Shown one piece after another: positions 7,011 to 58,133 of a stretch of 64,000 nt of DNA. The stretch is from assembly GCA_964355745.1 (NCBI GenBank), contig CAYHEN010000001.1, forward strand, positions 17 to 64,016. The letters are read 5' to 3'. Source of the stretch: Candidatus Woesearchaeota archaeon (lineage in GTDB: Archaea; Nanobdellota; Nanobdellia; Pacearchaeales; GW2011-AR1). The number at the start of each line of letters is the position of its first letter. Position 1 is the first letter of the stretch. Both the position numbers and the translations under genes were made by a program. The notes under the pieces are model-generated. The model was not told where the DNA came from and did not search any database. It was given only the letters and a program-made list of their open reading frames with translations.

Positions 7011-7538
7011 ATGGTTGACAAATTATCTGCTACTTATCTTAATAAAAATCCGATAATAAGAATTTTTAGCAGAACAAAAATAAAAATTGCTCTTATAATA
7101 GCGGATTTAAAAAAAGACGATTTAATATTGGATTTTGGATGTGGACAGGGTTGGCTGAAAAATAATCTTAAAGGACAGGGCTATAATATTATAGGATATG
7201 ACATAACTCCAGAGCACAGCGATGTGAAAGATTACACTAAAATAAAACCAGATAAAATATTTGCAATGGATGTTTTTGAGCATATCCCAAAAGAGGAAGT
7301 TAGGAAAACTATTAAAAATTTCAAAAAAATGAACCCTAATTTTGAACTCATAACTTCTATTCCCACAGAAAATTGGATTTCAAGAAAGGCGAGAAAGCTT
7401 CTGGGAAAGAGCGAGAGAGTTAAAGACCACATAACCAACCTGAAAGAGATTAAGGAAATTTTAAAAGAAGAATTGAAATTAGCAAAAAAATTTAATTTCC
7501 TGACAGTTAGCTATATCGCCAAATTTAAGAATATTTAA
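7011..7538 (+). CDS. Class I SAM-dependent methyltransferase
   Basis: ILDFGCGQGW (motif I) and DVFEHIP (post-motif II), as in Methyltransf_11/23. Confidence 0.65.
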   Translation: MVDKLSATYLNKNPIIRIFSRTKIKIALIIADLKKDDLILDFGCGQGWLKNNLKGQGYNIIGYDITPEHSDVKDYTKIKPDKIFAMDVFEHIPKEEVRKTIKNFKKMNPNFELITSIPTENWISRKARKLLGKSERVKDHITNLKEIKEILKEELKLAKKFNFLTVSYIAKFKNI

Positions 7539-9099
7539 TTTCATAAATAACAGCAACTGGCTTTTCCTGTTGGTAATATGCCTGAACAGGCATCATACTA
7601 GAATTATGTCTCTCTGGATAAGAGTACATCCAAGGTTCATGATATTCAAAGGAAGATAACATTAGGTATCTTGGTTTTATTCTTGATAAATTTCTTTGGA
7701 ATGTTGCTTCATCTGCCCCCATCTGGCCTAAGCCATAAGTGGTTCTCTCAGAATAATAAGTTATTTGTGGACGAGATTCAGAGATTATTATGTCTTGCGG
7801 ATTTGAATTTTCTTTCATCCATATTCCTGCCTGCTGTACTTCTAAATAAGAAGTCAGTTTGTTGTCTATCAAACCATTTGACCAAGCATAATTTGAAGGA
7901 GCACTACTAGTAAGGTTTATTATTAAAAGCAGTAAAAGAAAAATCATTGAAAGAGCATATATTACTTTCTTGCTTATTTTTGGATAATGCTTGTTTATTA
8001 GATTTCCTGCTTTTATTATAGGAGTTGCTGCAATTAAGAACAAAAATGGGAGAGTTGAAAGAATGTATCTGTGTTCCACCAATTGAGTTATATAACCTAA
8101 AACCAAGAATGGAACAACAATCCACAGGAAGATAAAAAATTTCTTTTGAACTTCCTCATTCTTGAAAATCTTATCCAATCCAAGAAACATGTCCTGAAAG
8201 AAAATAAATATTCCTATCACAAACAAAACAAGAATAGATTTGGTGAGAATATATGGCAAATCTTTGAAATAATCAAATATTGTTGAAACACTCCTTACAT
8301 TAGGTGTTGTGCTGGAAACTCCTGAAACTCCAAAATAGTGAGAAAGAATATCTGTAAAAATATTTCCATAGTGCGTCCAGTATAAAACAAAGAATGGGAG
8401 AAGAACTGCAAATGCCAAACCAACAGTTATCCAAAGGTGTTTATTCTTAATGAATTTGAATTTCTCCCTTGTAAATATGAAAACAAGGAAAGGAAGAGCA
8501 AACATCGCAAACTGGAATCTTGTTAACAATGAAAGAGCATAAAAAACTCCAAACAGGTATAAAAATTTATTTCCTTCTTTAAGAACATATCCTTTCCAAA
8601 AAAATAACAGAGCAAGCAGAAGAAAAAATGTTGCCGGAATATCTGTTAATATCCTTCCTGTAAAAAATAAAGAAACCCAAGAAAATAATACTCCTAAAGA
8701 CACTAAAATAGCAGTTTTTTTATCAAACATTTTAGAGATTATAAAATAAGAGAGGGCAACTAGAGATGTTGACATCAACATAACCAAAAACCTTACTCCT
8801 ATCTCCCCTAAACCAAATTTAAAAAATACAGCGCCGATTAGCGCCCATAGAAAACCTCTTCTGTAATACCAGATATCCCCTATATTCAATCCAAGCCCCC
8901 ATTCTTTAGCTGTAGAGAAATAATCTCCCTCGTCCCACCAAAGAGGCTGATGTGCAGTTTTTAAGAAAATCAAAAATCTTATTATAAATGCGGCTATTAG
9001 AAGAACAATAAATATTTTATCATAATTATCTTTTATCATAGAAGAAAGTTTTTTCTTTATAGAATTTTTTCTCTTTTCTATGTCTTCTTCCATTAACAA
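7525..9099 (-). CDS. GT-C fold membrane glycosyltransferase (PMT/ArnT-like, GT39/GT83 family)
   Basis: At least 10 predicted TM helices. N-terminal loop motif PLWWDEGDYFSTAKEW, resembling the DE/DD loop of PMT/ArnT-type lipid-linked-sugar transferases. Confidence 0.6.
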   Translation of the reverse strand: MLMEEDIEKRKNSIKKKLSSMIKDNYDKIFIVLLIAAFIIRFLIFLKTAHQPLWWDEGDYFSTAKEWGLGLNIGDIWYYRRGFLWALIGAVFFKFGLGEIGVRFLVMLMSTSLVALSYFIISKMFDKKTAILVSLGVLFSWVSLFFTGRILTDIPATFFLLLALLFFWKGYVLKEGNKFLYLFGVFYALSLLTRFQFAMFALPFLVFIFTREKFKFIKNKHLWITVGLAFAVLLPFFVLYWTHYGNIFTDILSHYFGVSGVSSTTPNVRSVSTIFDYFKDLPYILTKSILVLFVIGIFIFFQDMFLGLDKIFKNEEVQKKFFIFLWIVVPFLVLGYITQLVEHRYILSTLPFLFLIAATPIIKAGNLINKHYPKISKKVIYALSMIFLLLLLIINLTSSAPSNYAWSNGLIDNKLTSYLEVQQAGIWMKENSNPQDIIISESRPQITYYSERTTYGLGQMGADEATFQRNLSRIKPRYLMLSSFEYHEPWMYSYPERHNSSMMPVQAYYQQEKPVAVIYEIKYS

Positions 9100-28554: not shown

Positions 28555-29325
28555 ATGATATATCTCACAGGAGATGTCCATTCCAGAATAAAAGAAAACT
28601 GGGAACAGAAAATATCTGGAAATGAATTAGATGCTGCAAAGAGATATTTAGAAATTTTGAAAAGAAATAAATTATCCTCAACCTTATTTATCAATGGGAA
28701 ATGCTTGGATGAAAGCCCTGAAAAAGTTAAAGAATTGTTAAAGTATGATGTTGAAATAGGGGGGCACACTTATGATAATTTTGGCAATTTTGGAATAATA
28801 AAAAGTTACATCAACAGAAAACTTTTTGGATGTGTTTATGGCTCAAAAAGATTCCAAAAAAAGGACATAAAAAAAACTAAGAAAGCATTTGAGAATTTTG
28901 GATTAGAAATGAAAAGCTGGAGAACACATGCATTTAACTCAAATAGAACAACATTCAGGATATTAAAGGAAAATAACATAAAGTATGTTTCTGATTTGAT
29001 TGGAGACATAAAACCTCACGGAGAGAAAATTATTCATGTCCCTATAAACATCCCTGTTGACGTTGTCACAATCGCCTATGGAGAAACAAAGCCAGAAAAC
29101 AGAAATCCTTTTGCTTCTTGCACTAAAGGAAGAATTAAAGCAGAAGAATGGTTTGAAATCATTAAAAAAAGAATTGTTGATAATGAGAAAAATAAGATAG
29201 ATAGTGTTCTCTTGATTCACCCAATAACAATGAAGGTATTAGATGATTTTGAATTATTTGAAAAAATAGCTAAATTCTTGTTTAAATATAAATCTGGAAA
29301 AATTGAAGAATTTAAACTTAATTAA
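28555..29325 (+). CDS. Divergent polysaccharide deacetylase-like (CE4/NodB-like) protein
   Basis: LTGDVHS (TFDDG-like), GGHTYDN, WRTHAF and IIHVPIN loosely fit NodB motifs 1, 2, 3 and 5. Weak. Confidence 0.4.
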   Translation: MIYLTGDVHSRIKENWEQKISGNELDAAKRYLEILKRNKLSSTLFINGKCLDESPEKVKELLKYDVEIGGHTYDNFGNFGIIKSYINRKLFGCVYGSKRFQKKDIKKTKKAFENFGLEMKSWRTHAFNSNRTTFRILKENNIKYVSDLIGDIKPHGEKIIHVPINIPVDVVTIAYGETKPENRNPFASCTKGRIKAEEWFEIIKKRIVDNEKNKIDSVLLIHPITMKVLDDFELFEKIAKFLFKYKSGKIEEFKLN

Positions 29326-30259
29326 TATCTTTAATCTCAACACTAGTATGCCCTAGTTCTTGATTTGAGTTTGATTTTGATTTTACATCACAAGGATTAC
29401 AATTTCCATATTTATCACAGGATTTAAAAATATCCTGTATTTCAAATTCCGGATTTAAAATATTCCCTACTGCATTTTCTTGATTATATAAATCTCTGTG
29501 ACATCTAAAAACATCCCCATTTGGGCCAATGATAAGTTCTGATGTTTTACACACACAGAATTTTGTTTTGTCTTGAAATAAAGAATCTGGATATTTTGTA
29601 TAATTTCCTCTTTTCATAACAAAGGAACTTCCAAAATCGTCTTTTCCCTCATATTTCCCTATAAAAGATTTTACTCTGAAGCTTAATCCATTATTTCTGC
29701 ATTCTATACCCATCTGTTCTATTGCTCTTCCCTGCTCGTCACTTGGGTAATTCACAACCTCTATTCCTGCATTAAAACCTGCATTTTTTAATCTTAAAAT
29801 ATTTTTCATAAGTTCTTTTCCATCTCCCATTTGTTCGGGGTGATAAGAAACCCGTATAGAGGGGTATTTAGGATTACCACTTATCCTTTTAGAATCAATT
29901 TCAGAAATAAACTTATCCAATAACCCCTGCGTCCAATAAAGATTTGTTAAAATATTAATTCCAAGTTCGGGTTTAATATTTTTTATAATATAAAGAAAAT
30001 CTGGGTGTATTGTAGGCTCCCCTCCGCTAAAAGTTAATGGAACATTCAGAGAGATTATCCTATTTAAACCTCTTATCCATTCTTCCCCAGAGATTTCTTT
30101 AGAAAGACGGGAAAAGTTTTTATCATTAGCATTGATACAATAACTGCAATTTAGAGTGCACCTAAAAGTGGGGAAAATTGCTATGTATTTATAGGTTTCA
30201 GGAATAATTATTGGTTTCATTTTAAGAAAACAACTATATAAGTTAAAAAGCTTTTCCAT
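29318..30259 (-). CDS. Radical SAM protein with C-terminal SPASM/twitch-like Cys cluster
   Basis: FPTFRCTLNCSYC (CxxxCxxC). C-terminal CVCKTSE...RCHRD...CDKYGNCNPC. Confidence 0.65.
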   Translation of the reverse strand: MEKLFNLYSCFLKMKPIIIPETYKYIAIFPTFRCTLNCSYCINANDKNFSRLSKEISGEEWIRGLNRIISLNVPLTFSGGEPTIHPDFLYIIKNIKPELGINILTNLYWTQGLLDKFISEIDSKRISGNPKYPSIRVSYHPEQMGDGKELMKNILRLKNAGFNAGIEVVNYPSDEQGRAIEQMGIECRNNGLSFRVKSFIGKYEGKDDFGSSFVMKRGNYTKYPDSLFQDKTKFCVCKTSELIIGPNGDVFRCHRDLYNQENAVGNILNPEFEIQDIFKSCDKYGNCNPCDVKSKSNSNQELGHTSVEIKDIN

Positions 30260-30352: not shown

Positions 30353-31411
30353 ATGTCAAAAGATTTAGAAAATCTATCAGATGAAGACAGAACCTTCTTA
30401 GATAAAGCAAGTCAATTTCTTTCCTTAGATAAATACGGAGATTTTTTATTAAGGTGGGCAAGAGCTATTGAAGCTTATGGAACCCCAAGAGATTTTGTGT
30501 ATTCAACATATTATGAACAGACTAATGTTAATCTTGATGGTAAACTATATCCAATGCAGTATTTTATTTCTGAAAATAATGCACAGAGAGGAGCATTAAT
30601 GAATAAACAAAAGGCAGAAGCTGAGGCAAGAAAAACAAGGGGTGAAAAACCAAGATGGCCAAATGATGGAAATATTGCTTGTTTTCTTTGTGATAATATT
30701 GGGCAGGCAATAAGTAGAAGTGATAATATTGTTTATGATTTGGGAATTCATCTCATATTACCAAACAAATATCCCTCTCAATTCGGTCACTCTCTTTTTG
30801 TTCCAAAAGAGCATGATGATGAAACAAAAAGAGTAACACCCCAACAAATTCCAGAAGAGAGAGCAACATTATATGCCCCTGAAGAGGGGAAAACTCGAGG
30901 AAATATTCTTACAAGAGATTATCTGGATGCTGTGATTGAGTCTTGTGATAAATATCATTTATTTGGTGTTAGAAATCATGTACTTGATGGAATGAGTATT
31001 CCGGGTCACGACCACTTCCACATTTTCCCTCAAGACTTGCCTATATCTTCATTAGTTAGCTATGTTACTAAAGCAAAAAGAAAAACAGAATTTGGTCCAA
31101 CAATTTATTTATTAGAAAATACTCCCTTTGATACATTACTTATTCAAAGAGAAAATAGAAGAGATGTAACTTCTGTTGCTATTTCCCTCCTTGAAAAAAT
31201 GGAAAGAGACAATCAAGTATTTACTCTTACTTATAATAGAGGACAACTTTTTGTTAGCCCAAGGAACAGAGAACAAGTAAATAATAAAAGAATCCAAATT
31301 GGAGCAGGAGTTCCAACTCATTTTTCTGATACAAAAGGGGAAGAATTTTTACAAAGATTAGATAAATTTGTTCCGAAAAGAGGAGAATATAGCTGGGAAA
31401 AATACATGTGA
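30353..31411 (+). CDS. HIT-superfamily / GalT-like nucleotidyltransferase-phosphorylase
   Basis: Histidine-triad motif GHDHFHIFPQ in the C-terminal half. Length and two-lobed layout resemble the GalT/Ap4A-phosphorylase branch. Confidence 0.45.
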   Translation: MSKDLENLSDEDRTFLDKASQFLSLDKYGDFLLRWARAIEAYGTPRDFVYSTYYEQTNVNLDGKLYPMQYFISENNAQRGALMNKQKAEAEARKTRGEKPRWPNDGNIACFLCDNIGQAISRSDNIVYDLGIHLILPNKYPSQFGHSLFVPKEHDDETKRVTPQQIPEERATLYAPEEGKTRGNILTRDYLDAVIESCDKYHLFGVRNHVLDGMSIPGHDHFHIFPQDLPISSLVSYVTKAKRKTEFGPTIYLLENTPFDTLLIQRENRRDVTSVAISLLEKMERDNQVFTLTYNRGQLFVSPRNREQVNNKRIQIGAGVPTHFSDTKGEEFLQRLDKFVPKRGEYSWEKYM

Positions 31412-31417
31412 AATAAA

Positions 31418-32095
31418 ATGCCTACATTAGATTATACACCAATAGATTATAATTCCTGGAATTTTGGTGGACAAGGAAAAAATATACTTGATTCATTAAA
31501 AAAATCTGAAAGAGATATCTGGGGCGCTGCACTTCCTTTTCAAGATAAGAGAGAGGATATTGGGCATGCGGAAACTGTAACTTATTTTGCATTAAAAATT
31601 TTAGAGTCTATACCTGCAGATAGGAGAATAGTTATCCCTGCTGCGATTTTACATGACACTGGATGGAGCCAGCTTTCTTCTGAAGAAATCGCAAAATTTT
31701 ATTTGCCTAACTGGAAAGAATTTGAGCCACAACTGAGGAGAAAACATCAAGAAGAGGGAGTTAAAACCGCAAGAGAAGTTTTGGGGGTGTTGTATAAAAA
31801 AGAACTAATTCCTTCAATACTAGAGATAATTTCTCAACATGATACAAGGCAGGGATTTCTTAATACAGAAGATGGTGTTGTGAGAGATGCTGACAAACTT
31901 TGGATATTCACTGCTCCTTGTTGTGAATTAGCAGTAAGAAAAGAGCGTAATTTTGGAAAGTCGATTTATAATCAACTCAATGAATGGTTAAGTAGTGAAA
32001 GTTTTTTTTATTCTCCAATTTCGAAGAGTATTGCAAGAAAAGAATTTGAAAATAGTTTAAGCTATCTTCATGAAAAAAATATTTCATTAGAGTAA
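31418..32095 (+). CDS. HD-domain phosphohydrolase
   Basis: H...HD motif: IGHAETV ... ILHDTGW ... DADKL. Confidence 0.6.
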   Translation: MPTLDYTPIDYNSWNFGGQGKNILDSLKKSERDIWGAALPFQDKREDIGHAETVTYFALKILESIPADRRIVIPAAILHDTGWSQLSSEEIAKFYLPNWKEFEPQLRRKHQEEGVKTAREVLGVLYKKELIPSILEIISQHDTRQGFLNTEDGVVRDADKLWIFTAPCCELAVRKERNFGKSIYNQLNEWLSSESFFYSPISKSIARKEFENSLSYLHEKNISLE

Positions 32096-32136: not shown

Positions 32137-32646
32137 ATGATAAACATCAACCCAGAGAATTATAAATCTGATAATATATTATCAGAAGAAGAACTTATAA
32201 AAAAATTAGAAGAATTGAGAAGAAATGGAAAAAAGATTGGTTTGTGCTCGGGGAGTTTTGATTTGCTTCATCCAGGACATATTACACATTTAACCTCTGC
32301 AAAGAAGATGTGCGATATACTTGTCGTGGCTGTTGCCAGAGATCATTTTAATTCCAAAAAGAAAGGGAAGAACAGACCAGTTTATTCTCATAATATTCGT
32401 GCATTTATGATAAGTAAACTAAGACCTGTTGATTTTGTTATTTTAGATGATGGCACACTTGATACTCTCAATTTAGTAAAGCCAGATATTTACATAAAGG
32501 GAATAGATTACTCAAGTGAGAAAAATCCAGATATTGAACAACAAAAAGGGATAATTAATAATATTGGTGGAAAGATATGCTATACTAAAGATGAAAAGCT
32601 TTCAACTACAGATATAATAAAATATATAAAAGAAGAAGTGGAATAA
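32137..32646 (+). CDS. Cytidylyltransferase-like protein (TagD / RfaE-domain-II type)
   Basis: GLCSGSFDLLHPGHITHL is the (H/T)xGH nucleotidyltransferase signature. Small size is like glycerol-3-phosphate cytidylyltransferase. Confidence 0.65.
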   Translation: MININPENYKSDNILSEEELIKKLEELRRNGKKIGLCSGSFDLLHPGHITHLTSAKKMCDILVVAVARDHFNSKKKGKNRPVYSHNIRAFMISKLRPVDFVILDDGTLDTLNLVKPDIYIKGIDYSSEKNPDIEQQKGIINNIGGKICYTKDEKLSTTDIIKYIKEEVE

Positions 32647-32659
32647 AAAATTAAACAAT

Positions 32660-34303
32660 CTAAATAAAATTAATATGCATTGGAAACTTGCCTTCTGGTT
32701 GTTTATATTCTATTTCTCCTTTTTTCAGTTTGTCAAGAAATTCGTTAACTTTATGTTGCAGGCATAAAGTTCCACACATGGTTTTTGCATCGAACTTTTC
32801 AGAGGCAATAAGATTCATAACTTCCCAGTATTTATCACTCTGCCAAATTTCTTTAAATGATTTTTCGCATATATTGCCAATGTGATATTTTTTATATTTG
32901 TCATTAAATAACATACCACAGGGGGCAACTAAACCAGAGCCAGAAAGCTGAATTATAAATGGTGGCCCATAGCATTGAGAATAATCTCTTTTTCCCCCGC
33001 TTAAAATCTTTGACCATTTTGCTTTTACAGAGTATGTATCTGTGGAATAGGATTCTGCTTCTTTTATCATTTCTATTAAATCTTTCTCAAAATATTTATC
33101 ATATTTCACACCCAAATTTCCTTCTTCATCATCACTGCAGTGTTTTATCACGAGATAGTCCACACCAAGTTCTTTCCCTAACTTTGCTAATGGCAAGATT
33201 TGATCCTTAAATTCAGGCATTAATACCATCTGCATTCCTATTGTCACATTAAAATTATTTTGTTTTTTTATTTGCACAGCTTCTTTTATTATATCAATAA
33301 CTTCATAGAAATCTTCTTCTTTACAGCCCATTATCTCTGCGTATCTCCTTGGTTCTCCTGCAGAAAAGTTAAATCTCAAATAAGTAAGACATGGAAGAAT
33401 ATCCTTGAGTCTGTCTTTTCTTAATAGCCTACCGTTTGTTCCAAGAGCCATATCTAACCCTAAACTTTTACCATATATAATCGCATCATATAGATAAGCT
33501 GAACATGTACTTTCACCATCGCTCACAAAACTTATTGCTTTAACTCCTATCTCTGCTGCATCTTTTAGAAATCTCCTTATAACGTCTAAAGTCATTCTTT
33601 TCTCATCATTCTCCTGCAATTGCCCGTAACAGTAGACGCATTTATAATTACATCTTCTTGTTAGAGCGCAATCTATTGTTATAGGAGCAATTCTCTCTCC
33701 TCTCAACCAGGCTTCAATTCTTTCTTTATGCCATGCTAGTTTTGTCCCATCTAAAATAAGTTTTTCTTGGTTATCTTCAAACTCTTCGGAATACAAATCC
33801 TTCCTTTCTATTACCATTACTGGTTTCTCAAATTTTCTAGCTTCTTCATATGCCCTTTTTATTTCTTCAACATTATTTGCTTCATAAACTGGAAAATGCA
33901 CTATTCTTTTGAAGATTTCTGTAAAATCTTGCATATGCTGTAAACCAGGATAAAGTGGTTTTGTTGCTCCAACTATTGCTCTTATGATTATTGGAGCCTT
34001 AAATTGCCCTTTAGACATTACTTCCATTTTATCTAAATGGTTTACTAATGCATCTAAGGCTATAAGCATGAAATCATGCCTCTCATAAAATAAAACCGGT
34101 TTAAATCCTTCTAAAGCAAGTCCGATTGCTAAACCAGCCATTAAGTTTTCTGCAACAGGAGTTTCTACACATTTTGATACATCAATATCTTTCAATGTCC
34201 CATAAGATTTTGAGCCATGAATTAGATTATAACCCAAAAAAATAACTTTATCATCTTCTGCTAATATTTCCATTTCTCTTTTTATTGCATCTTGATATTT
34301 CAT
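32660..34303 (-). CDS. Fusion: TPP-enzyme pyrimidine-binding (Transket_pyr / E1-beta N-domain) + radical SAM + SPASM domain
   Basis: Residues ~1-175: VETPVAENLMAGLAIGLALEGFKPVLFY...IIRAIVG...PVYEANNVEEI, the E1-beta/transketolase PYR domain. Then LTRRCNYKCVYCYG (CxxxCxxC). C-terminal CYGPPF...APCGM...CGTLCLQH SPASM cluster. Confidence 0.65.
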   Translation of the reverse strand: MKYQDAIKREMEILAEDDKVIFLGYNLIHGSKSYGTLKDIDVSKCVETPVAENLMAGLAIGLALEGFKPVLFYERHDFMLIALDALVNHLDKMEVMSKGQFKAPIIIRAIVGATKPLYPGLQHMQDFTEIFKRIVHFPVYEANNVEEIKRAYEEARKFEKPVMVIERKDLYSEEFEDNQEKLILDGTKLAWHKERIEAWLRGERIAPITIDCALTRRCNYKCVYCYGQLQENDEKRMTLDVIRRFLKDAAEIGVKAISFVSDGESTCSAYLYDAIIYGKSLGLDMALGTNGRLLRKDRLKDILPCLTYLRFNFSAGEPRRYAEIMGCKEEDFYEVIDIIKEAVQIKKQNNFNVTIGMQMVLMPEFKDQILPLAKLGKELGVDYLVIKHCSDDEEGNLGVKYDKYFEKDLIEMIKEAESYSTDTYSVKAKWSKILSGGKRDYSQCYGPPFIIQLSGSGLVAPCGMLFNDKYKKYHIGNICEKSFKEIWQSDKYWEVMNLIASEKFDAKTMCGTLCLQHKVNEFLDKLKKGEIEYKQPEGKFPMHINFI

Positions 34304-34950
34304 CAGAAAGATAAGCCTCCTGCTTTTTTCCCACCAAAATCAACCCACTTATCGGTTCCAACATGAGGGTAGGTTGCATTGTATTTATATCTTCTAACAC
34401 ATTTTGGCCAAGACATTTCTGATTTTCCATATCTCTCTTTTTTTGGAGTATCAACAGAACGATTATTGTCTTCTATTATAAAAATACAGGGCAAGTTCCA
34501 GCCGTCAACATATCTTACTGCTTCATAAAAATGCCCTTCATCTTCTGCCCCATCTCCTATAAAACACCATACCCTATTGTTACTGTCCTTCTTCTTTAGA
34601 CCTAATGCAATGCCAGCAGCAATTGCGGGGCAGCCGGCAACAATAGATGAAGTAAAAAAATTCAATTTTTTGTCAAATACATGCATACTGTCTCCTCTTA
34701 GAATCATTTCTTTTAATTTTTCTTTTGAACCACCAGCAAGAAGATAGTGATAATGATTCCTATGAGTGGATAAGATATAATCTCCCGGCTGAATTTCCTT
34801 GAAGATTTCCATTAATTCATCTTCATTCCCCCCAGAAAAGTGGACTGGATATGGAATTTTGGCATCTTCCCATAATTTAATTATTTCGCTTTCAAAATCA
34901 ATTAACTCCTGTTTTGTTATTTTTATTTCCATTTTAAATAAAATTGTCAT
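34303..34950 (-). CDS. TPP-binding (PP-domain) subunit of a split E1-alpha/transketolase-like enzyme
   Basis: STHRNHYHYLLAGG ... WCFIGDGAEDEGHFYEAV ... IIEDNNRSV, the GDG(X)n-N TPP-binding motif of E1-alpha/transketolase N-terminal subunits. 1-nt overlap (TGATG) with the downstream Transket_pyr-rSAM gene. Confidence 0.65.
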   Translation of the reverse strand: MTILFKMEIKITKQELIDFESEIIKLWEDAKIPYPVHFSGGNEDELMEIFKEIQPGDYILSTHRNHYHYLLAGGSKEKLKEMILRGDSMHVFDKKLNFFTSSIVAGCPAIAAGIALGLKKKDSNNRVWCFIGDGAEDEGHFYEAVRYVDGWNLPCIFIIEDNNRSVDTPKKERYGKSEMSWPKCVRRYKYNATYPHVGTDKWVDFGGKKAGGLSF

Positions 34951-35986
34951 GGGGGTGCGGATTCTTTAATCTAAAAAGATAATTGTTTACAGGATCTAAT
35001 CTACATCCTTTTCTGCATACATCAATTCCTCTTTGTTTTATTTTTTCAATAATCTTTTTTCTCTGTTCACTTTCCCAAATTTCAGAAAAACTTTTTTCAT
35101 TTAGATTTCCATAGGTAAATTCAGGAGTGTTATAAAACAAGTTGCAGGGAATAACATTTCCTCTTGCATCTATTAATGCAAAAAAGGGCAGCCCATAACA
35201 TTCCCTGTAATCTCTTCCTTCTTCTATCCTTTTCATTGTCTGTTTCCTGAACTGCACCTGAAATTTTTCATCTTCTAATTTTTTTAACTCTTCCTCAATC
35301 CATTCTAGCTTTGAGTAATCCACTGAATAATTATTCTTACTTGAGGGATGATGAGAATAAGGCTTAATCTGTATGTTATCTGCTCCTGTCTCTTTTACCA
35401 ATTTAACTGCTCTTACTGCTTCATTAATATTTTCCGAAATCAATAGAAACTGAACCCCTATGGTTGTTTTCAATCCTTTTTCATTTCGTATTTTTACTGC
35501 TTCTTTTATATTGCTTATTACTTTGTCAAAATCTTCTTTTCTTGTTCCGTGAATTTTGGAATAACTTTCTCCTATTCCTGCATCAAGGCTAAATCTAATC
35601 CAAGATAAATGATGGAGACATCTTTCAGCCTTTTCTTTATCAAATAAGACTCCATTTGTAGTTATCGAAATATCCAAGCCATATTCTTTTGCTTTTTCTA
35701 TAAATTCACATATGTCCTTATGCAAAAGAGATTCACCCTCACCAGCAAACATAATTGATTTAACCCCATGATCCGCCATATCTTTTAATGCTGAAAGCAT
35801 AATTTCTCTGTTTATATCAGCACCGCCATGTTCTAACCAATCAAGTGCGCAAAAGATGCATCTGTGATTACACTTATTAGTAGTCCCTATTTCAACATAA
35901 ATAGGATAACAATCTCCCGCCTCATTCCATTCAAAAACTCTTTGGGGGTGAAAAGCGAGTTTGTGGCTGTCTGTCTCTATTTTCAT
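34934..35986 (-). CDS. Radical SAM / SPASM domain protein
   Basis: GTTNKCNHRCIFC. C-terminal CYGLPFFALIDARGNVIPCN...CRKGCR SPASM cluster. Confidence 0.7.
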   Translation of the reverse strand: MKIETDSHKLAFHPQRVFEWNEAGDCYPIYVEIGTTNKCNHRCIFCALDWLEHGGADINREIMLSALKDMADHGVKSIMFAGEGESLLHKDICEFIEKAKEYGLDISITTNGVLFDKEKAERCLHHLSWIRFSLDAGIGESYSKIHGTRKEDFDKVISNIKEAVKIRNEKGLKTTIGVQFLLISENINEAVRAVKLVKETGADNIQIKPYSHHPSSKNNYSVDYSKLEWIEEELKKLEDEKFQVQFRKQTMKRIEEGRDYRECYGLPFFALIDARGNVIPCNLFYNTPEFTYGNLNEKSFSEIWESEQRKKIIEKIKQRGIDVCRKGCRLDPVNNYLFRLKNPHPHDNFI

Positions 35987-36002: not shown

Positions 36003-37253
36003 TTAGTTGCTCTTAAATTCTTCTATGATATTATTAACATATTCAATTATTTCCTTTCTTCTTCTTTCCCCATAGGGATATGGAATTTCAAAATAAGGTG
36101 TAGGATTTTTCATATATTCCGCCCAATAATCTTTTTTGTAGAAGCCTTCCTTCAATAAACTTTGATAATAATCTGTATTTGGCTCTGGAAAAAGAATATT
36201 AAAATAAGGATATTTTATTCCAAGCTTCCTAATCATTTCAGGAAGTTCTGCAAGATACTTTTCATCATCTGTTGGTGCTCCTAATATAAAGTAGCCTAAG
36301 ATATCAATATTATTTTTATTCATTACTTCACAAAAACTTTTTATTTCTGCTAAAGAATTATTCTTTCTAAAAAATTCCAATGTTTTTTCATTAAGCGATT
36401 CTATCCCGACATGTATTCTTTTAAAATTATGCGCTGCAAGTTTTGGAGCTAAATCAAAGTCCATTCTTACCTGCCCCCTGCCGCTTAATTCAACAGAAAA
36501 ATTTTGCCGGTCCATCTCATCTAATATTTCTTGAACGTGATTCTTATTGATATTAAAATTGTCGTCTAAGATATGAACACTTCTGCAACCAACAGAATAA
36601 AGATGTTTCATCTCCTCAACTATTGTTTTCGGATTTTTGAACTGGACTTTTTTTGTTTGAACATTGCAGAAATTACAGTTATTCGGACACCCGATACTGG
36701 AGAACATAGGCAGTCTATTCGGAGCTTTGAATAAAACAGAAATTTTAGGAAAATAGTCTTCGATATTTATTAAAGTTCTATCTGGGAATTTTATATCATT
36801 TATTTGTGTATTGCATTGGATTACACCTTTAGGCAGTTCTTTTACAGCTTTAGCAAACTCCAGCTCTGCTAAAGGTCCGATAAAAACAGCATCAGCTCCT
36901 TTTTGGAGTACCTTTTCAGAATAATACAACGTATGCGGTCCTCCAACCACCTTATATGGGGCAGAAGTTCTTCTTAAAATTTCAGTCATTGCATAAACTC
37001 TTCTAGTAACAACAGAAAGTCCGAGTATGTCTGGTTTTTCAGACTCTATTTTTTCTATAGTTTGGTCAATTGTCCATCCTTCACTCGAAGGATCTAAAAT
37101 AACTATCTCATAGTCATCTGATAAATTTGTAGCCAAAGAAAGAATTCCTAAAGGAACATTTTTATTGCCTTTTGGCATAAAAAATTTGGGGGTTGTCCAA
37201 TCTACAAACTCTCCCTCTGCAGGCATTGTAGTTAATAAAATCTTTTTGGACAT
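36003..37253 (-). CDS. B12-binding-domain radical SAM protein
   Basis: N-domain PDILGLSVVT...VVGGPHTL, then SSIGCPNNCNFCNV. Confidence 0.8.
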   Translation of the reverse strand: MSKKILLTTMPAEGEFVDWTTPKFFMPKGNKNVPLGILSLATNLSDDYEIVILDPSSEGWTIDQTIEKIESEKPDILGLSVVTRRVYAMTEILRRTSAPYKVVGGPHTLYYSEKVLQKGADAVFIGPLAELEFAKAVKELPKGVIQCNTQINDIKFPDRTLINIEDYFPKISVLFKAPNRLPMFSSIGCPNNCNFCNVQTKKVQFKNPKTIVEEMKHLYSVGCRSVHILDDNFNINKNHVQEILDEMDRQNFSVELSGRGQVRMDFDLAPKLAAHNFKRIHVGIESLNEKTLEFFRKNNSLAEIKSFCEVMNKNNIDILGYFILGAPTDDEKYLAELPEMIRKLGIKYPYFNILFPEPNTDYYQSLLKEGFYKKDYWAEYMKNPTPYFEIPYPYGERRRKEIIEYVNNIIEEFKSN

Positions 37254-37255
37254 TT

Positions 37256-38203
37256 TTAATAAAAATTTTGAATTTTTTTAATTTCCTCCAAAATTTTTTC
37301 TGTATTAATATCTAAAATGCATGGTTTTTCTTTTTTGCATTCTGGTTTAAAACAAGGCATGCATTCTGGAACTGGGTCGGGTAGAATTGCTTTCCCTTGT
37401 CCATAAAAATATACTTCTTTATGAGGAGTTGGCCCAAATAAAGCAAGAATTTTTTTATTTAATGCTATTGCCAAATGCATACCTAAACTATCATTACTGA
37501 TAACTAATTTCCCTGAGTTTATCCAATCCATATAATCATGCAGATTTGTTAATATTTCATTTGGTTGTTTATCCTGTCTGCTCACTTTTAATCCTTCTTC
37601 AATTAGCTTTTCTTCAATTCTGTTCCACCTCTCAGCAGACCAAGCTTTATTCGGCCATTTCTGGCCCGCAAGAGTATTTAAACAAACATCATACTGTTCC
37701 ATTGTTCTAGGTTTATATCCTAAAACATATTTTTCCCCATTCCATTTCTTTCCAACCATCTCAAACAGAAGTTCTTGGGCTGTCTTTTCATTTTTTTGTT
37801 TCAAAATAGAATCAGAGCTTACAGCCAAAACTTCAAAAGCTCTATCATGTGCTTCTGCTTCTCCAGTGAAGGTATTAAACCGAAATCCAAATTTTTTCCA
37901 TGCTTTTATCTTGTCAGCTAATGCGCAAATCCCAGGAACTTTTTCTAAGTTTATTACACTATCGAACTCTTCTGATTCTAGTTGCAAAATTGTATTTACA
38001 TCGTAAGGCAATAATCTTTTTATAAAAGGATTATTTTCCAACAAAGGATAAGCGGATTCATCAGTTACCCATGTTACATTATCTTCTTTATATAAATGTA
38101 AAAGGGGTGTTGTCCTTAGTACATCTCCAAAACTAACTTTTCTAGAATGATTTCTCTCGAGAAATTCAGAATATCCTGCTTTTATTATTAAAACCTTTTC
38201 CAT
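37256..38203 (-). CDS. GT9 family heptosyltransferase
   Basis: MEKVLIIKAGYSE...FGDVLRTTPLLHLYKE (GT9 N-terminal signature) and GPTPHKE near the C-terminus. Confidence 0.7.
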   Translation of the reverse strand: MEKVLIIKAGYSEFLERNHSRKVSFGDVLRTTPLLHLYKEDNVTWVTDESAYPLLENNPFIKRLLPYDVNTILQLESEEFDSVINLEKVPGICALADKIKAWKKFGFRFNTFTGEAEAHDRAFEVLAVSSDSILKQKNEKTAQELLFEMVGKKWNGEKYVLGYKPRTMEQYDVCLNTLAGQKWPNKAWSAERWNRIEEKLIEEGLKVSRQDKQPNEILTNLHDYMDWINSGKLVISNDSLGMHLAIALNKKILALFGPTPHKEVYFYGQGKAILPDPVPECMPCFKPECKKEKPCILDINTEKILEEIKKIQNFY

Positions 38204-38278: not shown

Positions 38279-39490
38279 TTAAGAGTTTTCTTTATTAAAG
38301 TCTACTACTTTATTAATAAAATTCTCCAATCTCACAAAATTCTTTTCCATGCTTAATTCATTCCTGGCAATAACTATATTTTTTTGAATTTTTTCCCAGC
38401 TTATTTTTTGCAGTCTCTTTTTCAAATTTTTTAGATTCTTATCGTTAAAAGACATTGAAAGATTATAATGTTTCATTAATTTATCCACAAAGACAAGTTG
38501 TTTGTTATAAATAAAAGGAATCCCTGCTTCTAAATAACTGGCTAGTTTATTTCCTGTTGCAAAAAGAGGTTCTATGGTTGTTCCGTCAACTAAATTTGAT
38601 GCCCAAAATCCAAAATCATACTTTGAAATCTCTGGGACTATTTCTTTAGGTCCAAGAGGCTTATGTATATGAAAAAATTTATTATTCATTATCTCATCAA
38701 ATACACGCGAGATATACTCTCCTTCATTTTTCTCAGAAAGATGCTTAAAAGTCACATAAGCATGTATATGAATTCCTTGATTTAGGATTATTTTAAACAG
38801 GTTTGTAAGTCTAGAATCTGATGGAAAACCTCCAATATACACCATATGAAAAAAATTGTCCTTTTTTGAAAGTTTATCTTTGTTGATAGGAACTGTAAAT
38901 TCCTTGGAACAATATGGAAGAAAATTTAATTGAAAAGGAACGATTTTCAAATTTTTATGAATTCTATTATCAAGGTATTTAAGCTCGTCTGGAGCGCCCT
39001 TATGCGTTATTCCATTGGCATTTTCAAAACAATATCTTTCTGCTTCTATTTCAAATTTTTTGGTTGTTTTTAATGCCTTTTCTTTGGAATTGTATAAATG
39101 AGAGATAATATCATAAGGAAAATAAATAAAAGGATATTTCTTAAAAATATATTTATGCACTAATTTTAATTGCCAATTGTTTCCAGAAACACCTATTACT
39201 ACATAGGGTTTTAAAATTTTCATGGAAATTATAAATTTGATAAGACTTGGAATTTTTTTTATAAAATAAAAAAGAGATTTTAGATTTGGTTTAAAAAACT
39301 GAAAATTTGAACATATTATTTTATCAAATGCTTTTGAATAGAAATTGAAATCAAATCTGTCTTTCTCAGACACTGTTATTAAAACAGTCTCGTAGTTTTT
39401 TTCCTTGAATATTTTTGCTATCTTATATATCATCTCAAAAGGATGAGACGCACAATAAAATACAATTTGTTTTTTATCTTTCATTTTCAC
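38279..39490 (-). CDS. Hypothetical protein (403 aa), island-specific
   Basis: Long ORF with typical codon usage, co-oriented with GT9. No motif I can name. Confidence 0.4.
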   Translation of the reverse strand: MKMKDKKQIVFYCASHPFEMIYKIAKIFKEKNYETVLITVSEKDRFDFNFYSKAFDKIICSNFQFFKPNLKSLFYFIKKIPSLIKFIISMKILKPYVVIGVSGNNWQLKLVHKYIFKKYPFIYFPYDIISHLYNSKEKALKTTKKFEIEAERYCFENANGITHKGAPDELKYLDNRIHKNLKIVPFQLNFLPYCSKEFTVPINKDKLSKKDNFFHMVYIGGFPSDSRLTNLFKIILNQGIHIHAYVTFKHLSEKNEGEYISRVFDEIMNNKFFHIHKPLGPKEIVPEISKYDFGFWASNLVDGTTIEPLFATGNKLASYLEAGIPFIYNKQLVFVDKLMKHYNLSMSFNDKNLKNLKKRLQKISWEKIQKNIVIARNELSMEKNFVRLENFINKVVDFNKENS

Positions 39491-39696: not shown

Positions 39697-41241
39697 ATGA
39701 AAATAGTTTTAATTTCTACATTAACAGGTCCTTCAAACCTAGGGCTAGCAATCCTCTCTTCAGTCTTAAAAAAAGCAGGGTATGATGTAACTATGGTATT
39801 TATGGCAACAAATAAACTAACCAAAAACTCATATAATAAAAAAGAATTAAAACAATTAGAATTAATCTGTGAAGGCTGTGATTTAGTTGGGATTAGTTCA
39901 TTTACTGCAACATCCAAAAGAACAATTCAGATAATCGATTTTTTGAAGGGGAAAGTTCCAAATATGGTTTGGGGAGGAGTTCATGCCACTCTTTATCCAG
40001 AAGACTGTATTAAATATTGTGATATTGTATGTGTTGGTGAAGGAGAAGAAGCAATTTTAGATTTGGCAAAGGCAATTGAAAAAAACAAGCCAATTGATAA
40101 TATTAAAAATTTATGGATTAAAAAGGATAATAAAATAATAAGAAATCCAATTAGAAATATGATTAATGATTTGGATAAGATTCCTTTCCCAGATTTTGAG
40201 ATTGAAAAGCAATTTGTTCTAAAAAATGGGAAATTAAAGGGATTTGAAGAAAAAGATTTCGGCGGGCTGATAATATTTATGGCTGGTAGAGGTTGCCCTT
40301 ATGGATGTGACTATTGCAGCAATAATGTATTCAATAGGATATATGAGGGGAAAAGAGAATGCATAGTAAGAAAACACAGTATTGATTATGTTATTGATGT
40401 ATTGGCTTATATAAAGAACAAATTTCCAAATGTTAAAAATTTAGAGATTTCCGATGATTCATTTTCTCTCAGACCAATCAAAGAAATAAAAGAATTTGGT
40501 GAGAAATACAAAAAGAGAGTTGGTTTAAAATTCTATTGTTTAATTGACGCAAGAACTCTCACAGAAGAAAAAGCCAAGTTATTAGTTGATGCTGGATGCC
40601 AGATGGTTACAATAGGGATTCAAAGTTCAGAGAGGGTTAATAGACAAGTTTATCACAGGTATATAACAGATGAAGATGTACTTAGGAGTTCTAAAATATT
40701 AAAAAGTGTAAGTAAAAATTTAGCAACTACTTATGATATTATAACCTGTAATCCTTATGAAAAGCCGGAAGATATAATCGCTTTAATTAATCTTTTGAGA
40801 AAAATACCAAAGCCTTATCGTCTTTCAGTTAGTGCTCTTCTTTATTTTCCAGGAACCAATATAACTAATCGTGCCTTAAAAGACAAATTAATAACTGAAA
40901 AAGACTTATTCCAAGAAGATACTCCTGACAGGATGGGATTTCTTTTGAAGAGAAAAAAGAATCTGTACCTTAATTTAATTTCTACTTTAATGGGTGGGCT
41001 TGCTATAGACAATAAAGTAGGGTTAATTAATGATTCTTGGTTTGATTATCTTCTTGATGAAAAAAGGATTGAGAAGAATTTAAAAAATCCTTTTTTTGTT
41101 ATTTTGTTTATAAGATTCTTTAGAGTTCGTGATTTTGTTAGAAATAATATAGTAAAGAAAATTATTCCAGAATCATTTAAAAGAAGATATATAGAAATCA
41201 GGCTTAAAAATAAAATTCTATACAATCCAGTTCAAAACTAA
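39697..41241 (+). CDS. B12-binding-domain radical SAM protein (paralog of 15932-17470)
   Basis: GRGCPYGCDYCSN, VCVGEGEEAILDLAKAIEK. High similarity to the minus-strand paralog. Confidence 0.8.
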   Translation: MKIVLISTLTGPSNLGLAILSSVLKKAGYDVTMVFMATNKLTKNSYNKKELKQLELICEGCDLVGISSFTATSKRTIQIIDFLKGKVPNMVWGGVHATLYPEDCIKYCDIVCVGEGEEAILDLAKAIEKNKPIDNIKNLWIKKDNKIIRNPIRNMINDLDKIPFPDFEIEKQFVLKNGKLKGFEEKDFGGLIIFMAGRGCPYGCDYCSNNVFNRIYEGKRECIVRKHSIDYVIDVLAYIKNKFPNVKNLEISDDSFSLRPIKEIKEFGEKYKKRVGLKFYCLIDARTLTEEKAKLLVDAGCQMVTIGIQSSERVNRQVYHRYITDEDVLRSSKILKSVSKNLATTYDIITCNPYEKPEDIIALINLLRKIPKPYRLSVSALLYFPGTNITNRALKDKLITEKDLFQEDTPDRMGFLLKRKKNLYLNLISTLMGGLAIDNKVGLINDSWFDYLLDEKRIEKNLKNPFFVILFIRFFRVRDFVRNNIVKKIIPESFKRRYIEIRLKNKILYNPVQN

Positions 41242-57241: not shown

Positions 57242-57330
57242 CGCGCCTGGAAGGATTTGAACCTTCGACTTCGTCCTTTCCCAAGAATTGTAGGGGGGAC
57301 GCACTCTAATCCAAGCTGAGTTACAGGCGC
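57242..57330 (-). tRNA. tRNA-Arg (anticodon CCT), with a 13-nt intron
   Basis: Reverse complement GCGCCTGTAACTCAGCTTGGATTAGAGTGCGTCC-CCCCTA[CAATTCTTGGGAA]A-GGACGAAGTCGAAGGTTCAAATCCTTCCAGGCGCG. Acceptor and T-arm are perfect. 20 nt sit between the anticodon-stem halves. A canonical 37/38 intron gives mature loop CCCCTAA. C33 is unusual. Confidence 0.55.
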
Positions 57331-58017: not shown

Positions 58018-58133
58018 GAAGACGGCCATAATAGGTTGGAAACACCTGTTCCCTTTCCGAACACAGAAGTTAAGCTTCCTATGTTGACTGTGTTAGTGCC
58101 CGACAAGGCGCCAAGCAATCAAGCTGTCTTCTT
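58018..58133 (+). rRNA. rrf: 5S ribosomal RNA
   Basis: GAAGACGGCCATAATAGG...CCCTTTCCGAACACAGAAGTTAAGC...AAGCTGTCTTC. Conserved 5S segments, and a 9-bp helix I closing the ends (GAAGACGGC / GCTGTCTTC). T-run follows. Confidence 0.75.

Follow-up and report, generated by a model that had tools for sequence, protein, structure and literature searches.

The window analysed here is a stretch of 64,000 nucleotides from a Candidatus Woesearchaeota archaeon (contig CAYHEN010000001.1). Two adjoining open reading frames were confirmed on its minus strand. The first, at 34303-34950, encodes a short E1-alpha-like ThDP-binding (PP-domain) subunit of 215 aa. The second, at 32660-34303, has a 547-aa product composed of an E1-beta-like Pyr (aminopyrimidine-binding) domain, a disordered linker and a radical SAM (rSAM) domain with a SPASM/twitch part. 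The alpha stop and the start of the fusion gene overlap by 1 nt (ttcTG[A]TGaaa), as already noticed in a sequence-only reading of this DNA, and the fusion ATG has a GGAGG 12 nt in front of it. A second possible alpha start is the ATG at 34932. With Rfam at gathering thresholds no TPP riboswitch, SAM riboswitch or other element was found near the operon, and no curated NCBIfam model attains its cut-off on the alpha and beta proteins or on the two radical SAM proteins R1 and R2 described below.

The ThDP-binding domains

In the alpha subunit (34303..34950, minus strand) Pfam E1_dh matches residues 16-173 with 74.3 bits, above the gathering cut-off, the match spanning only profile positions 6-172 of 300. 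The NCBIfam model of PDH E1-alpha matches partially (1.6e-26), and a sequence search of the PDB retrieves E1-alpha at 1.4e-11. The predicted GDGAxxEG...N motif is present as GDGAEDEG...EDNN at residues 132-163. Its residues G132-D-G-A...E160-D-N162-N163 represent the GDG-X(24-27)-NN ThDP/Mg2+ motif and align with that of human PDH E1-alpha, and G132, D133, G134, E160, D161 and N162 show no variation across 36 homologues. The subunit falls short of a full-length 2-oxoacid dehydrogenase E1 in that the C-terminal half of E1-alpha (phosphorylation-loop / active-site loop region) is missing.

The Pyr domain occupies residues 1-172 of the fusion protein (33788..34303, minus strand). As expected for an N-terminus of the Transket_pyr/E1-beta kind, it is matched by Pfam Transket_pyr (residues 4-171, 36.6 bits, GA 27), partially by the NCBIfam PDH E1-beta model (1.5e-22; 79.9 bits where 321 are required) and by E1-beta in a PDB sequence search (2e-14). 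The Glu of its PVAEN motif aligns with the Glu of PISEM in human E1-beta, the aminopyrimidine-activating catalytic residue, and every fused protein in the alignment retains the AEN motif; the same alignment contains no conserved Cys in the beta domain. Pfam gave no Transketolase_C match on the 547-aa protein, in which linker and rSAM domain come after the Pyr domain. Orthologues of the Pyr domain are found as stand-alone proteins of 164-217 aa. The earlier idea that the rSAM domain had replaced Transketolase_C gives way to a Pyr-only protein (about 174 aa in relatives) that was fused with the next gene.

The structure models are confident for the alpha subunit and for the domains of the fusion protein. 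The linker (residues 173-182, 33758..33787, minus strand) is disordered with pLDDT <50, and the relative orientation of Pyr and rSAM domains in the AF2 fusion model is not confident (pTM 0.64, linker pLDDT ~44). Structural matches of both halves include 2-oxoacid dehydrogenase E1 and the split-gene transketolase of Carboxydothermus hydrogenoformans (PDB 6yak/6yaj). In the latter and in heterotetrameric E1, PP and Pyr domains likewise sit on separate chains that need to pair for ThDP binding, whereas the window pair is without Transketolase_C and the C-terminal half of E1-alpha and is therefore unlikely to dock E2 or reduce lipoamide. Judged by their motifs, the alpha PP domain and the Pyr domain of the fusion carry everything needed for binding and activating ThDP and together make up a minimal E1-type ThDP enzyme, in line with the split E1/transketolase-type pair proposed before.

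The radical SAM domain R2

Residues 183-547 and the stop codon (32660..33757, minus strand) encode R2, a radical SAM core with a C-terminal twitch/SPASM-like domain. Pfam Radical_SAM matches residues 214-367 (63.2 bits, GA 29.5) and Pfam SPASM residues 449-511 (33.9 bits, GA 21.5). The CX3CX2C cluster motif (C218/C222/C225, 33629-33652) together with a partial TIM-barrel core places R2 in the radical SAM superfamily. After the core only the four auxiliary cysteines C444, C462, C510 and C514 (32762-32974) are invariant, with C267 and C389 as additional invariant Cys. From the seven-Cys SPASM motif CX9-15GX4C...CX2CX5CX3C...C R2 retains as invariant only CX12GX4C (C444...G457-x4-C462) and CX3C (C510, C514), while C478 varies. 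Because just four post-core Cys are invariant, the SPASM part is probably a one-cluster, twitch-like domain, and R2 a radical SAM enzyme with one probable auxiliary cluster. The description of the protein as a Pyr domain fused to an rSAM-SPASM enzyme stands for the fusion, which recurs in independent assemblies, and needs correcting for the SPASM cluster.

R2 is 69-76% identical between phyla, also across domains, while the neighbouring genes diverge. Its nearest two structural neighbours are DesII and BlsE, radical SAM enzymes for a TDP-sugar and for cytosyl-glucuronate, both acting on sugar nucleosides/nucleotides. At the sequence level R2 does not belong to families of the DesII/BlsE type: identity is just 15-16%, the BlsE NCBIfam model reaches 21 of the required 400 bits, and R2, unlike these enzymes, has the four-Cys auxiliary site and invariant motifs of its own (SDGESTCS, HCSDDE and a C-terminal H-x-N-F-I tail).

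Neighbouring genes and the glycan island

The sequence-only reading had placed a second SPASM rSAM, a B12-rSAM and a GT9 after the pair; Pfam bears out these identities, and all three are, with respect to transcription, upstream of the pair. R1 (34934..35986, minus strand, 350 aa, assigned by Pfam) is an rSAM protein with a twitch/SPASM-like domain and paralogous to R2, the full-length alignment with the R2 domain giving 33% identity (E 3e-57). The conserved core cassette begins with this gene, the stop codon of which overlaps or directly adjoins the start of alpha. The B12-binding radical SAM enzyme (36003..37253, minus strand, 416 aa, Pfam B12-binding and Radical_SAM) has orthologues of 53-65% identity in loci L006, L009, L023 and L077. 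It is preceded by a glycosyltransferase of the GT9 (heptosyltransferase) family (37256..38203, minus strand, 315 aa, Pfam Glyco_transf_9 57.1 bits). GT9 adjoins R1 in L001, L005, L025, L037, L062, L074, L076, L077 and L083 and stands in for GT2 in the DPANN-type cassettes. The minus-strand gene string is headed by a conserved 403-aa protein without Pfam match (38279..39490), which has homologues at 38-41% identity in the DPANN-type loci L001/L014 and in L077.

Beyond the fusion gene a third small rSAM protein with a weak SPASM match is encoded (29318..30259, minus strand, 313 aa, Pfam). It goes with GT9-type cassettes, and homologues lie within 6 kb of R2 in 11 of 59 loci (e.g. L001, L005, L012, L076). 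Convergent on the fusion gene is an RfaE-domain-II-like nucleotidyltransferase (32137..32646, plus strand, 169 aa; TIGR02199 at 117 bits, under the cut-off of 181.5). Thirteen bacterial cassettes contain a stand-alone CTP_transf_like gene. Its product, about 160 aa long, has 68-78% identity with the L047 reference, and the 169-aa protein of the window shares about 37% with one of these proteins.

At a distance of some 20 kb from the cassette the window encodes an HldE-like kinase/adenylyltransferase (10724-12133, minus strand; HldE model 407 bits over the full length, below the cut-off of 521) and GmhB (9118-9672, minus strand; 187 bits, above the cut-off of 149.6). Between them lies a GSU2086-family protein (9662-10720, minus strand; 318 bits, above the cut-off of 250); in Geobacter GSU2086 is located between hldE and gmhA (PMC5585712). 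A membrane glycosyltransferase of the PMT_2 type (GT-C, ArnT/PMT-like; 7525..9099, minus strand; Pfam PMT_2 42.8 bits) is a candidate for the final transferase of the island, and in L041 a PMT_2 protein directly follows R2. The window further contains two GT9 genes in all and a Wzx-like flippase; in bacterial loci a GmhA-like SIS gene and a kinase/nucleotidyltransferase gene are found upstream. By its gene content the context of the cassette is an ADP-heptose and surface-glycan island, and the ThDP genes share their position inside a nucleotide-sugar/glycan cluster with the ThDP enzymes of sugar C2-branching.

A cassette conserved across archaea and bacteria

Sequence comparison identifies the window genes as the DPANN-archaeal form of a cassette with the order R1 - ThDP-alpha - ThDP-beta - [GT2 or GT9] - R2. 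Homologues of R2 are encoded in 520 species-representative genomes of Archaea and many bacterial phyla, and all 80 cassette genomes read are MAGs or single-cell genomes. Co-occurrence was counted in the 59 loci having at least 3.5 kb upstream. A ThDP alpha/beta pair is found within 5 kb of R2 in 52 of these (in L054 the pair is at 6.4 kb), R1 within 6 kb in 51 and GT2 within 6 kb in 48. A single-chain ALS-family ThDP enzyme (TPP_enzyme_N/M/C) takes the place of the pair in L077, where it fills precisely the position between R1 and R2 and overlaps by 4 nt, and in L019, where it is in the cluster. Within about 8 kb on either side of R2, four of the 59 loci lack a ThDP gene (L043, L073, L056, L058), L043 and L073 showing the order R1-GT2-R2; such genomes may do without the ThDP step or carry its gene at another site.

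The slot is accordingly filled by four non-orthologous types, namely full E1 alpha/beta, a transketolase/DXS-like split enzyme, the mini-E1 of the window and the single-chain ALS-family enzyme, which indicates a role as generic C2 (acyl-anion) donor. As Transketolase_N scores above 2-oxoacid decarboxylase in one of the types, the donor could be a ketose instead of pyruvate. In most loci the ThDP genes are located between R1 and R2, away from the SIS/kinase genes. An SDR epimerase/dehydratase, present in 24 of 80 loci, could provide a keto-sugar without R1. Full-text searches found no literature on the cassette or the Pyr-rSAM architecture, and analogues only (PMC4802897, PMC3715490).

Frequency and origin of the fusion

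Besides the window, 11 further clusters (JGI, Logan, ENA, NCBI) are fused between beta and R2, and one triple fusion joins alpha, beta and R2. The beta+R2 fusions are those of the window, L004, L005 and P0002-P0011, and the triple fusion is P0012. The fused protein of the window (P0001) is present in identical form on two contigs in NCBI, MGnify, ENA and Logan. Other fusions join GT2 to R2 (L049, P0028) or E1beta to GT2 (L059, L067), and none was seen for R1. As Rosetta-stone fusions these combinations link the components of the cassette. The linkers vary in length and sequence yet stay in frame.

The linker site corresponds to the stop/start overlap of unfused relatives, which in the close relatives L001/L014 measures 4 nt, and in a DNA alignment of the window with unfused L001 and fused L004/L005 the junctions are distinguished by small indels. 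According to this alignment the fusion arose when the overlapping stop/start of the adjacent genes was lost. The R2 domain of the window is nearest to the stand-alone proteins P0013/P0014 in an NJ tree without support values, which makes repeated conversion between fused and unfused states, by fusion or fission, an indication and not proof. Approximately 12 fused clusters stand against about 460 beta-family clusters, a rough ratio because the beta-domain search left out the fused proteins, its own query cluster included; all 120 clusters that it did list are stand-alone. On these sequence comparisons most copies of the widespread cassette are unfused, and the Pyr-rSAM fusion is an infrequent and evolutionarily labile form of it, not a unique architecture.

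Relation to known systems

AviB1/AviB2 of avilamycin and Plm8/Plm9 of paulomycin are, like the window pair, two-subunit E1-type ThDP enzymes in a nucleotide-sugar cluster without E2/E3, and pairs of this type have been proposed or shown to transfer a pyruvate-derived two-carbon chain onto a keto-sugar (PMC4802897). The comparison covers domain type and gene setting. The window subunits are by contrast bare PP (215 aa) and Pyr (~172 aa) domains, of which beta can be fused to rSAM; two radical SAM enzymes partner them in place of the 4,6-dehydratase route, a heptose is presumed as the sugar, and the hosts of the cassette are uncultured anaerobes and DPANN archaea. For YerE (yersiniose, ALS/POX family) the same reaction is proposed, between hydroxyethyl-ThDP from pyruvate and a keto-sugar nucleotide. 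The single-chain enzymes of L077 and L019 share the ALS family with YerE, whereas the window enzyme is of a different ThDP lineage (E1/transketolase type, split). To our knowledge PFOR is the only well-known natural case of a ThDP site and [4Fe-4S] clusters in one polypeptide or complex, as in the window fusion. The fusion differs from it in domain families and arrangement, has no ferredoxin-like domain and has its ThDP domain flexibly tethered to a radical SAM enzyme.

Proposed function

The cassette probably makes an unusual cell-surface sugar. By analogy, we lean towards the reading that it modifies a nucleotide-activated sugar, most probably the ADP-heptose made by HldE/GmhB, for a cell-surface glycan by means of a pyruvate-type C2 carboligase and two radical SAM enzymes. 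R1 would work in the dehydrogenase mode of DesII/BtrN, abstracting a ring hydrogen and turning one of the carbinol groups in the NDP-heptose into a ketone. The ThDP enzyme would decarboxylate pyruvate to hydroxyethyl-ThDP and, in the manner of YerE, AviB1/B2 and Plm8/9, attach the two carbons at the keto position, giving a branched nine-carbon sugar; E1 alpha/beta-like pairs and YerE add such a pyruvate-derived branch to keto-sugars (PMC4802897). R2, kept beside the ThDP site through translational coupling or the flexible tether, would then subject the branched product to another round of radical chemistry (an epimerisation, a deoxygenation or a rearrangement), with the invariant C267 and C389 as possible H-atom donors, and GT9 or GT2 plus the GT-C enzyme would place the sugar on the envelope. 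A connection to sugar C2-branching enzymes had been suggested from the sequence; the exchange of E1, TK/DXS-like and ALS-family enzymes in one slot and the DesII/BlsE-like fold strengthen this analogy. Against the reading as a whole weigh the four loci without a nearby ThDP gene, the ThDP type that scores better as Transketolase_N, the SDR enzyme of 24 loci as another source of a keto-sugar, the distance of HldE/GmhB from the cassette and the unconfident placement of Pyr relative to rSAM.

If this holds true, a five-gene module in hundreds of uncultured lineages, among them DPANN archaea, Patescibacteria, Omnitrophota, Nitrospirota, anammox Planctomycetota and Desulfobacterota, would make an unseen higher-carbon or branched surface heptose by an unprecedented enzyme combination, a ThDP carboligase bracketed by two DesII/BlsE-like radical SAM enzymes. 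Radical-SAM enzymologists would gain a very large, exceptionally conserved family with a testable substrate hypothesis, and a ThDP enzyme pared down by nature to PP (215 aa) and Pyr (~172 aa) would be of interest for biocatalysis. As an envelope modification the product may matter to the episymbiotic lifestyle of DPANN/CPR organisms.

A bolder variant, which we regard as unlikely, makes R2 and the ThDP enzyme one composite catalyst. In it the ThDP-bound C2 enamine, or else a radical derived from it by one-electron oxidation (the auxiliary cluster serving as electron relay), would directly trap the sugar radical generated through 5'-deoxyadenosyl abstraction, and a carbon that is not activated would acquire a new C-C bond. 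Such an integrated multienzyme machine would account for the conservation of R2 (69-76%) and for the recurrent beta-R2, alpha-beta-R2, beta-GT2 and GT2-R2 fusions; we know of radical acyl-transfer by ThDP only from engineered or photo-driven systems.

Alternative explanations

The ThDP module might instead supply reductant in the manner of PFOR: pyruvate would be decarboxylated oxidatively and its low-potential electrons relayed by the auxiliary Fe-S cluster to that of the radical SAM core, rendering R2 self-reducing; the sugar would gain no C2 unit and at most be acetylated via acetyl-ThDP. We consider this quite unlikely. Enzymes of the E1, transketolase and ALS types work as two-electron carbanion catalysts with no Fe-S cluster near ThDP, and the beta domain is without conserved Cys. 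The covalent joining of the Pyr domain to an Fe-S protein would suit the idea, but fusion is the minority state, the flexible, disordered linker does not point to a fixed electron-transfer path, and R1, a paralogue equally dependent on reductant, was never found fused. Also compatible with it are the PFOR/OFOR chains among the distant structural matches of both ThDP domains, the reduced redox metabolism of DPANN and CPR organisms and the swappable ThDP types, which fit a generic electron donor as well.

Maturation of peptides or cofactors is the commonest role in the SPASM subfamily, and R1 and R2 could accordingly yield a modified peptide or small cofactor as cassette product. This is very unlikely in view of matches to such families that are all far under their cut-offs (e.g. 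89.8 bits against 380) and of the top two structural neighbours of R2, which act on sugar nucleosides. Moreover every locus is flanked by nucleotide-sugar and glycosyltransferase genes, GT2 is itself fused to R2 or E1-beta, and in an undirected reading no precursor-peptide gene was noticed.

Highly improbable is a minimal transketolase/decarboxylase that makes or trims a precursor, such as sedoheptulose 7-phosphate (S7P) for GmhA, with no direct rSAM partnership and with the fusion as an accident of tight gene packing. S7P is required for heptose synthesis, Transketolase_N is the best match of one cassette type, and fused and unfused states interconvert easily. Nevertheless the ThDP genes mostly lie between R1 and R2 and not beside SIS/kinase genes, and the full E1 alpha/beta and ALS-family occupants of the slot are not transketolases; gene position and displacement by these enzymes disfavour a transketolase for S7P. 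Several independent fusion types joining beta, GT2 and R2, with linkers of differing length kept in frame, likewise speak against an accident.

That the fused ORF arose artificially in assembly or sequencing, through an indel that deleted the stop of a separate Pyr gene, is scarcely credible: unfused L001/L014 with their 4-nt overlap and the closeness of the R2 domain to stand-alone P0013/P0014 would agree with it, but the identical P0001 on two contigs in four resources and the 11 independent fused clusters with differing in-frame linkers plus the triple fusion lead us to reject it, as well as the earlier concern that an error had affected normally separate genes. The cassette and its interpretation would be unaffected even if the window copy were unfused. 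The natural beta-R2 and alpha-beta-R2 fusions are ready constructs for expression and structure work.

Gene pair and its domains

Both genes described in the sequence-only reading are present in the ORF list, as a 215-aa E1-alpha-like ThDP-binding subunit (34303-34950, minus strand; alpha) and a 547-aa protein (32660-34303, minus strand; the fusion). As that reading had it, they overlap by 1 nt, the stop codon of alpha sharing its last base with the ATG of the fusion (ttcTG[A]TGaaa); with a GGAGG 12 nt 5' of this ATG, translational coupling is plausible. The gene of the neighboring paralogous radical SAM (rSAM) protein R1 (34934-35986, minus strand, 350 aa) runs 17 nt into alpha as annotated; an alternative alpha ATG is found at 34932, and R1 ends 1 nt before it. 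The claimed N-terminal Transket_pyr (Pyr) domain and its fusion to an rSAM protein were confirmed by Pfam matches above the gathering cut-offs: Transket_pyr at residues 4-171, Radical_SAM at 214-367 and SPASM at 449-511. Alpha matches the first half of E1_dh only (profile positions 6-172 of 300, above the gathering cut-off). NCBIfam and PDB sequence searches gave E1-beta and E1-alpha of pyruvate dehydrogenase as closest relatives. The glutamate of the Pyr domain and the ThDP/Mg2+ motif (GDG...NN) both align with them, and the AlphaFold2 models of fusion and alpha are confident. Alpha and the Pyr domain, on two chains, make up a minimal ThDP enzyme whose cofactor motifs are intact; these motifs place it in the E1/transketolase lineage, and it would work like other members. 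In contrast to 2-oxoacid dehydrogenase E1, the pair has neither the E1-alpha C-terminal half nor the Transketolase_C domain, both defining features of that enzyme.

The rSAM part (R2) shows extraordinarily high conservation when fused homologues are aligned with stand-alone ones. Invariant are C218/C222/C225 (CX3CX2C), C444/C462/C510/C514 (CX12GX4C...CX3C) and two further cysteines, C267 and C389, a non-cluster pair that is absent from R1. The proposed SPASM cluster stood only in part: the Pfam match is there, but R2 lacks the full seven-Cys motif, so that a single, twitch-like auxiliary cluster is likeliest. R2 is an rSAM enzyme that is neither a canonical SPASM protein nor, at the sequence level, part of the BlsE or DesII families. 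R1 is paralogous to the R2 domain over its full length (33% identity, E 3e-57). Both end in a C-terminal H-x-N-F-I-COOH tail (32660-32680 in R2, 34934-34954 in R1), present in 85/85 R2 ORFs and 54/55 R1 ORFs, the remaining one carrying a YDNFI variant. The tail is modeled with low confidence and may serve in docking or as a plug of the active site.

Distribution of the fusion

When about 5.8 billion proteins were searched for homologues of the fusion, 5955 matches were obtained. The 120 listed include, besides the protein's own cluster, 11 further Pyr-rSAM clusters (546-577 aa, 69-79% identical, with varied linker lengths and from several data sources) as well as an 802-aa E1-alpha + Pyr + rSAM triple fusion (P0012). 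In the other 107 of the 120 listed the Pyr domain is missing; most of them consist of the rSAM protein alone (about 367 aa, with 71-86% identity in the rSAM part), and one is a GT2+rSAM fusion. Their sources, where named, are Nanoarchaeota, Patescibacteria, Omnitrophota and Auribacterota. For the short alpha there are more than 1000 homologous clusters (204-249 aa in the 120 listed) and for the Pyr-only beta about 460, the best 120 of which are all stand-alone (164-217 aa). In a neighbor-joining tree of the rSAM domain, calculated without support values, fused and stand-alone forms are interleaved, the window protein standing beside two stand-alone proteins (P0013, P0014), and at the DNA level the junction differs from that of an unfused locus with a 4-nt overlap (L001) solely by small indels. 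The fusion is thus easily formed from overlapping stop and start codons and is not an ancient architecture; it represents a minority form within a widespread cassette. A sequencing or assembly artefact is in practice excluded by the independent clusters, the several data sources and the varied linkers.

The cassette across genomes

Scanning one genome per GTDB species, we found R2 homologues in 520 genomes. The 80 best of these loci were compared, all of them from MAGs or single-cell genomes, including Nitrospirota, Omnitrophota, Planctomycetota (among them Ca. Brocadia and Ca. Scalindua), Desulfobacterota, Elusimicrobiota, Patescibacteria, Nano-/Pacearchaeota and others. Gene by gene, the core order is R1 - ThDP-alpha - ThDP-beta - GT2 (~255 aa) - R2; DPANN-type cassettes carry GT9 instead of GT2. 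Between loci R2 is 69-76% identical, while R1, alpha and beta go down to 27-60%. Co-occurrence was counted in those 59 loci whose upstream sequence spans 3.5 kb or more: R1 lies within 6 kb of R2 in 51, GT2 within 6 kb in 48, and an alpha/beta pair within 5 kb in 52. These pairs are full-length E1 alpha/beta (28), a Transketolase_N-type protein (~276 aa) with a Pyr-only protein (~163 aa) (19), or the mini type of the window (5). At L054 the pair is 6.4 kb away, and at L043, L056, L058 and L073 no ThDP gene was found within the flanks covered. Two loci, L077 (6238-8016) and L019 (3021-4832), have a single-chain TPP_enzyme_N/M/C protein of the ALS/POX family, to which YerE belongs, in place of the pair; in L077, a Pacearchaeota MAG, this 592-aa enzyme is encoded precisely between R1 and R2, its gene sharing 4 nt with that of R2. 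The position of the thiamine enzyme is filled by four non-orthologous enzyme types. The components are further tied together by GT2+R2 fusions (L049, 154-1833; protein P0028) and fusions of full E1-beta with GT2 (L059, 6244-7986; L067, 6172-7998).

Many bacterial loci carry before the core a GSU2086-family protein, a small RfaE-II-like nucleotidyltransferase, a nucleotidyltransferase+PfkB kinase and a GmhA-like SIS isomerase. Partial matches to AglJ, PpgS and ArnC liken the GT2 to polyprenyl-phosphate glycosyltransferases, and at L041 a PMT_2/GT-C protein directly follows R2. On contigs binned as Phycisphaerae (L012, L023) there are mini alpha/beta cassettes of the DPANN type, with about 72% identity to that of the window; either the cassette was transferred between domains or the contigs were mis-binned.

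Glycan island of the window

Around the gene pair, about 40 kb of the window (7.5-46 kb) make up a glycan island with PMT_2, GmhB (above the NCBIfam cut-off), an HldE-like gene, one GT2, several GT4s, an SDR epimerase/dehydratase, methyltransferases, a deacetylase and a Wzx-like flippase. Its radical-enzyme content is unusually rich for a glycosylation locus in a small-genome archaeon: six SPASM-type rSAM genes (R1, R2 and four further) and five B12-binding rSAM genes (15932-17470, 21770-23131, 36003-37253, 39697-41241, 44058-45668). Between GmhB and HldE a GSU2086-family protein is encoded (9662-10720; NCBIfam NF052581, above cut-off), with a weak ArgZ-like/deoxyhypusine-synthase-like Rossmann match. 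The family occurs in 12 loci (e.g. L041:488-1441), in Geobacter sulfurreducens GSU2086 is flanked by hldE and gmhA (PMC5585712), and the family seems to be a conserved, uncharacterised component of heptose operons. Two further fusions join a GT9 heptosyltransferase-family domain to a NUDIX hydrolase (12205-13593, 462 aa) and a sugar-1-phosphate nucleotidyltransferase (NTP_transferase) to a GT4 glycosyltransferase (17588-19462, 624 aa); at L001 and L002 a stand-alone NUDIX gene follows R2. A 352-aa protein (30353-31411) without Pfam or NCBIfam match has a HIT/GalT-like GHDHFHIFP histidine motif and may be a nucleotide-sugar phosphorylase or transferase; an HD-domain protein (31418-32095) stands between it and the small nucleotidyltransferase of the window. 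The context of the pair is heptose activation and glycosyl transfer.

Proposed role

While we are highly confident of the cassette and the fusion as described, we favor by a modest degree the reading that a nucleotide-activated heptose is the substrate of a ThDP carboligase and two radical enzymes. The main argument for a generic acyl-anion (C2-donor) role of the ThDP enzyme is the displacement of one type by another, E1, DXS/transketolase-like or ALS-family, at the same position. R1 would oxidize a ring carbinol of an NDP-heptose to the ketone, chemistry established for DesII and BtrN. The ThDP enzyme would add a pyruvate-derived C2 unit to this ketone, for which YerE, AviB1/B2 and Plm8/9 are precedents (PMC4802897). 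The branched sugar would then undergo a second radical step, catalysed by R2, and be installed by GT9 or GT2 together with a GT-C enzyme. This specific order of steps is tentative and rather doubtful.

With a Pyr domain fused to an Fe-S protein, a PFOR-like role, in which ThDP-dependent pyruvate oxidation feeds electrons to the rSAM cluster, is attractive, but it is not supported: no Fe-S ligand lies near the ThDP domains, the linker is flexible and R1 is never fused. That the pair is a transketolase supplying a precursor is disfavored by where its genes lie and by the enzymes, E1 and ALS-type, that replace it elsewhere. Peptide or cofactor maturation is disfavored by gene context and by family scores far below threshold. 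Neither the cassette nor the Transket_pyr-rSAM architecture was found described in literature searches or NCBIfam, and we therefore rate the cassette as an undescribed, widespread combination of known kinds, sugar C2-branching ThDP enzymes and sugar-nucleotide rSAM enzymes.

Flanks and host

The flanking genes (SecDF, DUF655, an RNA polymerase Rpb3-like subunit, form-III-like RuBisCO, a lone 5S rRNA and tRNAs) and the G+C content of 30% identify the host as a DPANN-type archaeon; the window is syntenic with L001. Just beyond the island, the 414-aa RuBisCO large-subunit homologue (48645-49889) is probably form III-like, a form common in DPANN and CPR organisms, and adjoins a GHMP-kinase + NTP_transferase fusion (50009-51811). 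The 5S rRNA (58018-58132) lies away from other rRNA genes, and an 89-nt tRNA (57242-57330), matched by Rfam with 48.7 bits and not called by ARAGORN, is possibly an intron-containing archaeal tRNA.
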